Sequence record: KX266300
Direction: 5' to 3' (one strand)
Origin: Enterobacteria phage ID11
DNA length: 5,577 nt
Made by a program: the position numbers and the translations under genes. Of this stretch, positions 59 through 4,553 are shown in pieces. Numbering within the stretch: position 1 is the first letter of the stretch; each line of letters opens with the position of its first letter. The notes beneath the pieces were generated by a model that had not been told where the DNA came from, made no database searches, and saw nothing but the letters and a program-made list of their open reading frames with translations.

Positions 59-1723
59 ATGTTTAAAACACATTCTGACTACTTTAATAAACCTAACATC
101 GACGCTATCAAACCTCTCGTCGAAACTGCTGGTATGTCTGTTCTTACTCAATCCCCAAACCTCCGTATCTGGAAACAGTGCAATACTCGCATTAAACTAC
201 TGGAAGAAATCCTTGCTCACTACACAAATGGTATTCGCCGTGACGACAATGGTGACTTCTGGATGAATCCCAACTCTCAACTCGCAACCACTATCGCCTA
301 TCGTGCCCACCACAAAGGCCATAACCCTAAATTCAAACAATATCCAGAATCCTTTACTCTGGATGACATTATTACTGGTAAACCAATCCCTCAATCTGCC
401 CCTGACGAATTACAACTCTCCGATGAAATCGGTGAAGACTATCGCCTTACAGTCCTCTCCATAATCGAAGAATTGCAAGAATGCTACGACGTGCTCGGAC
501 AACTTGATATTAATAACACTATAGACCACAAACCCCTCGGTAATGACCACTGGGACTTACTCTATGAAAAACCCGTTTACAAACACTGGTATCAACTCGT
601 ATCAAAACGACCCCTTAAAGATATCCGCGCCGATTACAACTATGCAAAGGCGAAGGGTGTTAAGGATGAATGCTCAAAAATCTTGGAGGAATCAACTATG
701 AAGTCTCGACGTGGCTTTACCGTTCAAAGATTAATGAATGCTATGCGTACTGCCCACACTCAGGGCTGGTATGTTGTATTCGATACTCTTACTCTAGCCG
801 ATGACCGCTTAAAGGATTTCTATGATAATCCCAATGCTCTCCGTGACTACTTTCGTGATATTGGTCGTATGGTGCTTACTGCCGAGGGTCGCTCGGTGCA
901 TGACTCATCTGCCGACTGCTATCAGTATTTTTGTGTGCCAGAGTATGGTACACAGCACGGTCGTCTACATTTCCACGCAGTGCATCTTATGCGCACACTT
1001 CCTTTGGGCTCTCTGGACCCTAACTTCGGTAAGTTGGTACGCACTAATCGGCAAATAAATAGCTTGCAAAACACGTGGCCTTATGGTTACTCTATGCCCA
1101 TCGCAGTCCGGTACTCCCAAGATGCATTCTCTCGCGCTGGCTGGCTCTGGCCTGTGGACTCAAAGGGTGAACCCCTTAAAGCTACCTCGTATATGGCTGT
1201 AGGCTTCTACGTTGCTAAATACGTTAACAAAAAATCAGATATTGACATGGCCGCAAAAGGCCTAGGGAATAAAGAATGGAACAATTCACTCAAAACCAAA
1301 ATCAACCTCATACCCAAGAAAGTGTTCAGAATACGAATGTCCCGCAATTTCGGAATGAAACTGCTATCAATGTCTCACCTGTCAGCGGAAACCCTGATGG
1401 AACTGACCCAAGTGGGTTACGACGTGACCCCGTTCAACAACATCTTGAAGCAGAACGCCAAGAAAGAGCTCAAATCGAGGCTGGCAAAGAAATCTGTCGC
1501 CGACGTTTTGGAGGCGCAACCTGTGACGACCAATCTGCTAAAATTCATGCGCAATTTGACCCGAACAATCGGAGCGTCCAGCCTACAGAGTTTTATCGCT
1601 TCAATGACCACGAAATTAACAAGTACGGATATTTCTGATGAAACCAAAAACTACGTTGCTGCTGCAGGAATTGCTGTTGCTAACTTACGAATTAAATCGA
1701 AGTGGACTGCTGGTGGAAAATGA
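59..1723 (+). CDS. A: Replication initiation protein A (HUH rolling-circle endonuclease), 554 aa
   Basis: Translation aligns along its whole length with phiX174/G4 protein A as I recall it. HUH motif HFHAVH is encoded at 968-985 and the paired catalytic tyrosines (YVAKYVNK) at 1208-1231. GGAGG Shine-Dalgarno at 48-52 sits 6 nt before ATG 59. The ORF-track start at 32 is an in-frame upstream ATG with no SD. TGA stop 1721-1723 overlaps the C start codon (ATGA). Confidence 0.92.
500..529 (+). other. Viral (+) strand origin of rolling-circle replication; predicted A-protein nick between G506 and A507
   Basis: Exact match to the 30-bp origin CAACTTGATATTAATAACACTATAGACCAC conserved among phiX174-like phages (from memory). 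It lies inside gene A and encodes [10 protein letters not shown]. The A protein is known to nick CAACTTG/ATATT. Confidence 0.9.
698..1723 (+). CDS. A*: Protein A* (N-terminally truncated A from an in-frame internal start), 341 aa
   Basis: In-frame ATG at 698 opens the sequence MKSRRGF, which is where phiX174 A* begins. A strong SD GGAGGA at 685-690 lies 7 nt upstream inside the A coding sequence. The length matches phiX174 A*. Expression is inferred, not shown by sequence. Confidence 0.55.
1276..1638 (+). CDS. B: Internal scaffolding protein B, 120 aa
   Basis: Complete ORF nested inside A in another frame. Translation (MEQFTQNQ ... [15 protein letters not shown]) is clearly homologous to phiX174 B, including the conserved C-terminal FYRF..GYF. 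Weak SD AGGGA at 1264-1268. Confidence 0.9.
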
Positions 1724-1808
1724 GGAAATTCAATCTCAACTTAAAAAACTCGAGGTCGTCTTACTTCGCAACCTTTCGCCATCATCTCAACGTGCTGGCA
1801 AAGACTGA
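1638..1808 (+). CDS. K: Protein K (non-essential burst-size modulator), 56 aa
   Basis: Not in the ORF track because it is under 60 aa. ATG 1638-1640 overlaps the B stop (TGATG at 1636-1640). Translation [56 protein letters not shown] resembles phiX174 K (shared [12 protein letters not shown] core). It spans the A/C junction in the third frame; stop TGA at 1806-1808. Confidence 0.8.
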
Positions 1809-1974
1809 CGCCCTTGACGAGGAAAAATACCTAAACATGCTAGGTGCTCTCCTTAAAGACTGGTTCCGGTACGAAGAACATTTCGTACATGGTAAACAAT
1901 CAATGCTTGACATACTGAAAGAACGTGGCCTATTATCCACATCGTCAACTGACACAAACCACAAAGGAAACTGA
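1720..1974 (+). CDS. C: Protein C (ssDNA synthesis and packaging switch), 84 aa
   Basis: ATG 1720-1722 overlaps the A stop TGA 1721-1723. Translation [42 protein letters not shown]... is near-identical in pattern to phiX174 C. The track ORF at 1702 is only an upstream extension to a GTG. Confidence 0.9.
1907..1936 (+). promoter_or_regulatory. Candidate sigma70 promoter upstream of D (P_D-like)
   Basis: Perfect -35 TTGACA at 1907-1912, an 18-nt spacer, and -10 TATTAT at 1931-1936. The predicted start is about 1943-1945, roughly 30 nt before the D SD and ATG. Position inside C matches the known P_D arrangement in phiX174. Confidence 0.45.
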
Positions 1975-3883: not shown

Positions 3884-3892
3884 CGCAACAAA

Positions 3893-3998
3893 GGCCGCCC
3901 CTCTACTGGTCAGATACCTGCCCAATGTGGGGCGGACCGTGCCTACGGAGACACCCGAGTCTCCGATACATGGACGGCGAAAGCCGCCGTCCCTACTG
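3893..3998 (+). other. Complementary (-) strand origin, G4-type: three stem-loops plus a CTG primase start site in the F-G intergenic region
   Basis: The 136-nt F-G spacer (3884-4019) holds three hairpins readable from the sequence: 3893-3901/3929-3938 (9 bp with one bulged A, 27-nt loop), 3946-3952/3959-3965 (7 bp, 6-nt loop) and 3972-3979/3985-3992 (8 bp, 5-nt loop). CTG at 3996-3998 follows the last hairpin. The reverse complement of 3972-3997 is AGUAGGGACGGCGGCUUUCGCCGUCC, which matches my recollection of the G4 primer RNA 5' end. Confidence 0.7.
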
Positions 3999-4019
3999 CA
4001 AAGCCAAAAGGACTAACAT

Positions 4020-4553
4020 ATGTTCCAGAAATTCATTTCTAAGCACAATGCTCCAATTAACTCTACTCAGCTTGCTGCTACTAAAACCCCGGCTGTCACG
4101 GCACCTGTTTTATCTGTGCCTGACTTAAGCCGCTCTACTATTCAAATCAATGCAACAACCACAGCCGTTACAACTCATTCAGGCTTGTGCCATGTTGTTC
4201 GCATTGATGAAACAAACCCAACAAATCATCACGCTCTATCTATTGCAGGTTCGTTGTCAAACGTCCCTGCTGATATGATTGCTTTTGCCATTCGTTTTGA
4301 GGTCGCTGATGGCGTCGTTCCTACTGCCGTTCCGGCCTTATACGACGTCTATCCAATCGAAACCTTCAATAACGGCAAAGCAATCTCATTTAAAGATGCT
4401 GTTACCATCGACTCACATCCCCGCACCGTCGGTAACGACGTTTATGCGGGAATTATGCTCTGGTCTAACGCTTGGACCGCCTCTACTATCTCTGGCGTCC
4501 TCTCTGTTAATCAGGTAAACCGTGAAGCAACCGTCCTTCAACCTCTGAAATAA
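4020..4553 (+). CDS. G: Major spike protein G, 177 aa
   Basis: N-terminus [10 protein letters not shown] and C-terminus ...[18 protein letters not shown] match phiX174 G (MFQTFISRHN ... LQPLK). The interior is divergent but collinear, as expected for the host-range spike. SD AAGGA at 4008-4012 lies 7 nt before the ATG. Confidence 0.92.

Follow-up and report, generated by a model that had tools for sequence, protein, structure and literature searches.

Overlapping A/A*/B/K/C genes of the G4-type microvirus ID11: uneven constraint across the block and possible stop-start restarts at K and C

The genes A to C in the DNA analyzed here (a window of 5,577 nucleotides) are almost certainly the A/A*/B/K/C overlapping-gene block of phage ID11, a G4-type microvirus. 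Within it, extra constraint is uneven, being strong where A and K overlap, moderate where B lies inside A, and absent in the K/C overlap beyond that of C itself. Our explanation as a whole, which joins the identity of the block, selection on K and putative restarts of translation at K and C, has in our judgment a probability of roughly 85%. The arrangement is real but ordinary, and since it has been known from the work of Shaw et al. 1978 and Fiddes and Godson 1979, the finding is not new. It carries little weight as a discovery, the block being a founding example of overlapping genes and the GenBank record that matches the window annotating it already. Raw sequence alone was enough for a reader to recover the four genes along with the two junctions.

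Identity and layout of the block

Over its full length the window is 99.9% identical to coliphage ID11 (AY751298), with 100% identity across 1200-2050. ID11 is classified in the Microviridae, Bullavirinae, species Gequatrovirus G4, and near-identity to this classified member, together with the gene order (B inside A, K over the A/C junction), places the window in the same species. The record annotates A at 59-1723, A* at 698-1723, B at 1276-1638, K at 1638-1808, C at 1720-1974, and D at 1976-2434, followed by E, J, F, G, and H, and the open reading frames of the window agree with this single-strand order (A, A*, B, K, C, D, E, J, F, G, H). The parts of the block are as follows:

59-1723, + strand: gene A, replication initiator (AY751298 annotation; Pfam Phage_GPA, E=4e-60, 203.9 bits)
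698-1723, + strand: A*, in-frame internal product of A (AY751298 annotation)
1057-1100, + strand: region homologous to the phiX174 B promoter (phiX174 start mapping; predicted start near 1100)
1276-1638, + strand: gene B, internal scaffolding protein, entirely inside A in another frame (annotation; Phage_B, E=1.4e-49)
1636-1640, + strand: TGATG, B stop and K start with one base in common (direct reading; all three clades)
1638-1808, + strand: gene K, 56-aa non-essential protein, in the third frame across the A/C junction (annotation; Protein_K)
1687-1746, + strand: block 97% identical between ID11 and phiX174 (sliding identity profile)
1720-1723, + strand: ATGA, C start overlapping the A stop (direct reading; all G4-like and phiX174-like genomes)
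1720-1974, + strand: gene C, 84 aa, switch to single-strand DNA synthesis and packaging (annotation; Phage_C, E=2e-38)
1907-1936, + strand: D promoter, sigma-70, in the 3' part of gene C (consensus scan and phiX174 start mapping)

Read directly, B starts at the ATG of 1276-1278, and its stop (TGA, 1636-1638) shares its A with the start of K (ATG, 1638-1640), while the C start (ATG, 1720-1722) overlaps the A stop (TGA, 1721-1723). The coordinates originally predicted for B, K, C, and the end of A were right, both by this reading and by the AY751298 annotation, and the two stop-start overlaps, TGATG and ATGA, are present where they had been placed. All three forward frames are in use, as had also been claimed (numbering frames by position modulo 3, A occupies frame 2, K frame 0, and both B and C frame 1). 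The statement that every frame is coding at 1720-1723 holds for base 1720, which belongs to a sense codon in each of the three, and fails for 1721-1723 unless the A stop codon is counted. Pfam matches were judged against the curated gathering cut-offs, and A, B, K, and C were all above them, with 168 bits for Phage_B (PF02304; cut-off 27), 130.5 bits for Phage_C (PF12025; cut-off 25), and 59.8 bits for Protein_K (PF12283; cut-off 25, E=3e-16, K residues 1-52). Together with the ID11/G4 identity, these matches bear out the classic microvirus arrangement recognized in the original prediction.

The window differs from AY751298 at three positions, 2361, 2578, and 2615, all of them outside the A/B/K/C block. 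C2361G changes Ala129 of D to Gly and Pro70 of E to Ala, C2578T falls in the palindrome GTGGGACCGCGGTCCCAC between J and F and weakens it, and A2615G changes Thr6 of F to Ala; G4 has the AY751298 reference bases at all three. The window may be a laboratory-evolved or variant ID11, as it is an exact match to no deposited record. Records named as Protaetiibacter and Mycolicibacterium phages also match this coliphage family, likely through contamination with the phiX174 sequencing spike-in.

The block in phiX174 was reportedly described by Barrell in 1976 and Sanger in 1977. Its gene order, frames, TGATG, and ATGA are those of ID11, K has 56 aa, and the A stop lies 85 nt after the B stop; identity to ID11 reaches 97% in 1687-1746 and is roughly 40-97% in the rest of the region. 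The G4 isolate GQ153922 is closer still, with the same gene coordinates as ID11, 96.5% identity over aligned positions 56-2455 (97.7% over 1200-2050), both junctions as in ID11, no structural difference, and only 2/56 differing residues in K. The alpha3-like phages (alpha3, WA13, NC35, and St-1) resemble ID11 in having B inside A and a K that starts at TGATG or TAATG and runs from the tail of A into the beginning of C. Unlike in ID11, their C starts 30 nt past the A stop, does not overlap A, and follows a strong Shine-Dalgarno site, and their K has 53 aa rather than 56. All of the alpha3-like genomes compared (L013, 2240-2270, and 12 other distinct ones) carry GTGA where G4 and phiX174 carry ATGA. 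We rejected this invariant GTG over the A stop as the start of the alpha3-like C, since the variation falls on C-frame second positions (6/9); from the alignment it looks like a relic and not a start.

Constraint across the overlaps and the K frame

Constraint was measured in 11 distinct G4-like genomes (79-99.5% identical), counting variable columns by codon position, with the following results:

A only, A third positions: 244/393 variable (62%), baseline
A/B overlap, A third positions: 54/119 variable (45%), p=0.0014
A/K overlap, A third positions: 4/26 variable (15%), p=3.6e-6
C only, C third positions: 30/49 variable (61%), baseline
K/C overlap, C third positions: 16/27 variable (59%), p=1

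This codon-position comparison across relatives, which had been proposed as a check, finds suppression in A/K, a moderate one in A/B, and none in K/C beyond C's own. The expectation of strong constraint on the overlapping nucleotides is therefore upheld for A/K, holds to a moderate degree for A/B, and fails for K/C. The A/K result was replicated in 13 distinct alpha3-like genomes, where A third positions vary at 2/26 sites in A/K versus 157/341 (p=5.9e-5); the phiX174-like clade (5 genomes, 96.8-99.7% identical) was too uniform for such a test, 0/78 sites varying in A/K. Within the A/K overlap, K third positions become the most variable class. OLGenie-style ratios, which are indicative only because they come from few sites (79-82 nt), uncorrected distances, and non-independent related pairs, put the dNN/dNS of K at 0.33 where it overlaps A and at 1.73 where it overlaps C, with a value near 0.85 for A in the A/K overlap and a C dNN/dSN of about 0.30 in the K/C overlap.

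The block shared with phiX174 at 1687-1746 holds the tail of A, K residues 17-36, a Shine-Dalgarno-like GGTGG (1712-1716), and the C start, and its stretch 1691-1724 has only 2 variable columns among the 11 G4-like genomes. It and the block 1057-1100 both reach 97% identity between ID11 and phiX174, compared with roughly 40-95% in other parts of the region. Against alpha3, the clade with the C start elsewhere, identity in 1687-1746 falls to 30-47%.

B exceeds chance in this one genome and K does not. The B frame (120 codons) was stop-free in 3/20,000 synonymous-codon shuffles of A, whereas 8% of such shuffles, applied to A and C, left the K frame (56 codons) open. Since the single-genome test for K is not significant, the case for this gene rests on comparative data. 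A locus search with protein C alone returned 5 loci, and one with a protein D alignment as probe returned 19. The K frame is open in every locus reaching the region across the G4-like, phiX174-like, and alpha3-like clades, with 19 loci in one set, 9/9 more, and 18/18 from the viral collection, and with some duplicate genomes among the whole. An interruption of K alongside intact A and C, the observation that the original prediction had named as counting against its conservation, was sought in these relatives and never found; K is conserved. In contrast, minus-strand open reading frames of 45-76 codons in the same region (1207-1347, 1382-1519, 1417-1647, and 1782-1964) are broken in divergent relatives and were rejected as spurious. 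The 1-nt overlap of B and K is likewise kept in all three clades, and since two alpha3-like genomes have TAATG in place of TGATG, it survives a change of stop codon. A further signature comes from the alpha3-like genomes, in which K is the sole frame over the 27 nt that separate the A stop from the C start; there, 6/9, 3/9, and 0/9 sites are variable at K positions 3, 1, and 2, respectively, a periodicity that amounts to a plain coding signature in the K frame. A translated search with K matched 539 phage records, and all of the 60 matches listed were of the phiX174/G4 type; this search masked the leucine-rich N-terminus, and its coverage figures for phiX174 are thus too low.

Two details of alpha3-like K genes stood out. 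One genome from the viral collection (L039, 1838 onward) has lost its K stop, so that the protein goes from 53 to 62 aa, which fits weak constraint on the K C-terminus. For St-1 (NC_012868; L027, 1443-1619), RefSeq places the K start upstream (record position 2142) and not at the ATG of the conserved TGATG used in all other records, in what looks like an annotation inconsistency.

As judged from the aligned genomes, K is a conserved coding frame whose N-terminal half (the first helix, over the A tail) is under purifying selection in two independent clades, and whose C-terminal half evolves as a passenger of gene C; in the latter half, 17/28 residues differ between phiX174 and ID11. AlphaFold, run on K alone, predicts a two-helix hairpin (helices 3-22 and 29-46, pLDDT 84), and hydropathy gave no clear support for a membrane span in K (best 19-residue mean, 0.88). 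G4 itself is the phage in which gene K was first described, as a detected protein (Shaw et al. 1978, Nature 272:510, cited in PMC6542195), and mass spectrometry has detected all 11 phiX174 proteins (PMC8125068). Pavesi's review (PMC8227390), which notes that Fiddes and Godson 1979 analyzed the overlapping gene systems of G4 and phiX174, treats K and E as the younger frames and the A C-terminus as an overprinted extension; the claim that K is an overprinted gene with restricted distribution and unusual codon usage comes from Pavesi's work (PMC8227390). Under laboratory conditions, nonsense and missense variants of the phiX174 K carried no measured fitness cost (10.64898/2026.07.25.740675, a 2026 preprint).

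Promoters and translation starts

Gene C carries the D promoter in its 3' part as well as coding sequence. At 1907-1936, TTGACA and TATTAT separated by an 18-nt spacer match the sigma-70 consensus at 11/12 positions, and we identify this promoter as that of D because the annotated phiX174 transcription start 358 maps to position 1945 of the window. The annotated start of the phiX174 B promoter (4899) maps to position 1100, within a block (1057-1100) 90-97% identical to phiX174, in which the consensus promoter scan called none. Two other embedded signals lie elsewhere in the window. Inside gene A, the 30-nt CAACTTGATATTAATAACACTATAGACCAC at 500-529 is identical to phiX174 4299-4328, spanning the annotated viral-strand origin (4306), and it is not found exactly in alpha3-like genomes. 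The F-G intergenic region (3884-4019), which we take to be the site of the G4 complementary-strand origin recognized by primase, forms three hairpins when folded as single-stranded DNA (-31 kcal/mol, z=-5.1, with 0/200 shuffles as stable).

The Shine-Dalgarno matches at the two junctions are poor. Among the 11 genes, predicted pairing with the 16S anti-Shine-Dalgarno sequence is weakest for K, with a duplex energy of -3.3 kcal/mol, and C reaches -4.9 kcal/mol with a gap of only 2 nt, compared with -9.5 for A (59), -9.3 for A* (698), and -8.7 kcal/mol for J. Conservation of these values extends over the G4-like genomes and to phiX174. The alpha3-like C start, which does not overlap A, is preceded by AGGAG with -7.4 to -10.3 kcal/mol and a 5-6 nt gap; the ribosome-binding site before C is thus weak in the phages with an A/C overlap and strong in those that lack one. 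Weak matches at K and C, and a strong site at the non-overlapping alpha3-like C, fit stop-start reinitiation and, with it, the translational coupling that the original prediction had raised as possible.

The geometry is that of coupled pairs, both TGATG (a 1-nt overlap) and ATGA (a 4-nt overlap) being same-direction stop-start pairs. Among E. coli pairs with such overlaps, 4/5 were strictly coupled by termination-reinitiation, and in the remaining 1/5 the downstream gene was initiated de novo (PMC6728339, Huber et al. 2019). ID11 resembles these pairs in its 4-nt and 1-nt overlaps and uses E. coli ribosomes; it differs in that A, the upstream partner of C, is untranslated on most transcripts and in that its coupling is putative. 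In phiX174, removal of the overlaps lowered protein C (10.1101/2020.06.10.143693).

Ribosomes ending B would restart at the overlapping K start codon, and those ending A or A* would restart at C, adding to its weak and badly spaced binding site. The step from B to K probably takes place; B and K are on the same mRNA in all transcripts, and a restart would explain the very weak ribosome-binding site of K. For the contribution of ribosomes terminating A or A* to C we see about even odds, and it would operate only on A-promoter transcripts. Only on these would ribosomes translating A reach C, since the start of the B promoter maps to ~1100, past the starts of both A and A*; on B-promoter transcripts the A frame is untranslated, so C must start de novo there. 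A coupling through the opening of RNA structure was dropped, as the start regions have no significant structure (in 81-nt windows at the B, K, C, and D starts, folding was no better than shuffled, z -0.9 to +0.7). An Rfam scan of the whole window gave no match.

Competing explanations and implications

The overlaps could instead be no more than a side effect of compressing the genome to fit a capsid of limited size, with K and C initiated de novo and the shared bases without any regulatory role. We consider this rather unlikely, although several observations agree with it: most transcripts cannot couple C to A, given that the B promoter start is downstream of the A and A* starts; the K and C starts are not hidden by RNA structure; A and C are separate in alpha3-like phages; and 1/5 of the E. 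coli overlap pairs had de novo downstream initiation (PMC6728339). Against it stand the Shine-Dalgarno matches at K and C, the weakest or worst spaced of the 11 genes, and the strong, well-spaced site before C in the clade without an A/C overlap. The survival of the 1-nt B/K overlap through a change from TGA to TAA and the lower protein C output of decompressed phiX174 (10.1101/2020.06.10.143693) also count against it.

Two other readings concern K itself. That the protein is unimportant, and that ribosomes moving over the C initiation region in the K frame serve to tune C expression, seems to us quite improbable. The K frame does pass directly through the C ribosome-binding site and start codon, its C-terminal half shows no purifying selection (the indicative dNN/dNS of 1.73), and the phiX174 variants without a measured fitness cost (10.64898/2026.07.25.740675) would agree with a dispensable product; but the same nonsense mutants would halt this ribosome traffic, yet they are tolerated (10.64898/2026.07.25.740675), and the amino-acid-level constraint on the N-terminal half in two clades, as well as the K-frame periodicity of the alpha3-like K-only stretch, count against it. 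The last reading, in which K is a chance open frame and A third positions in 1641-1719 vary little on account of a nucleic-acid signal (the C ribosome-binding region, DNA packaging, or replication) and not a protein, is effectively refuted. It draws on the 8% of synonymous shuffles in which the frame stays open in this genome alone and on the inclusion of the C initiation region in the most conserved block, 1687-1746. Against it stand a frame open in every locus reaching the region in three clades while minus-strand frames of 45-76 codons break in divergent relatives, coding periodicity where K is the sole frame (alpha3-like), and the reports of K as a detected protein (Shaw et al. 1978, cited in PMC6542195; mass spectrometry, PMC8125068).

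Our preferred reading is thus that of a conserved block with selection on K and putative restarts at K and C. Uneven constraint, selection on K, and the contrast between the C sites together lead to a concrete and cheap coupling experiment in a model phage. K is under purifying selection in nature, yet it is dispensable in the laboratory. One possibility, for and against which we see equal chances, is that K is effectively a short N-terminal peptide, with helix 1 (plus ~10 residues in alpha3-like phages) selected in at least two clades even though laboratory assays find K fully dispensable, and the rest an unconstrained read-through of C; as a separate point, the way in which C is initiated may have changed between stop-start coupling (G4, phiX174) and reliance on a ribosome-binding site (alpha3-like). 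If true, the short-peptide reading would imply a condition-dependent role of K in natural hosts that standard assays miss.
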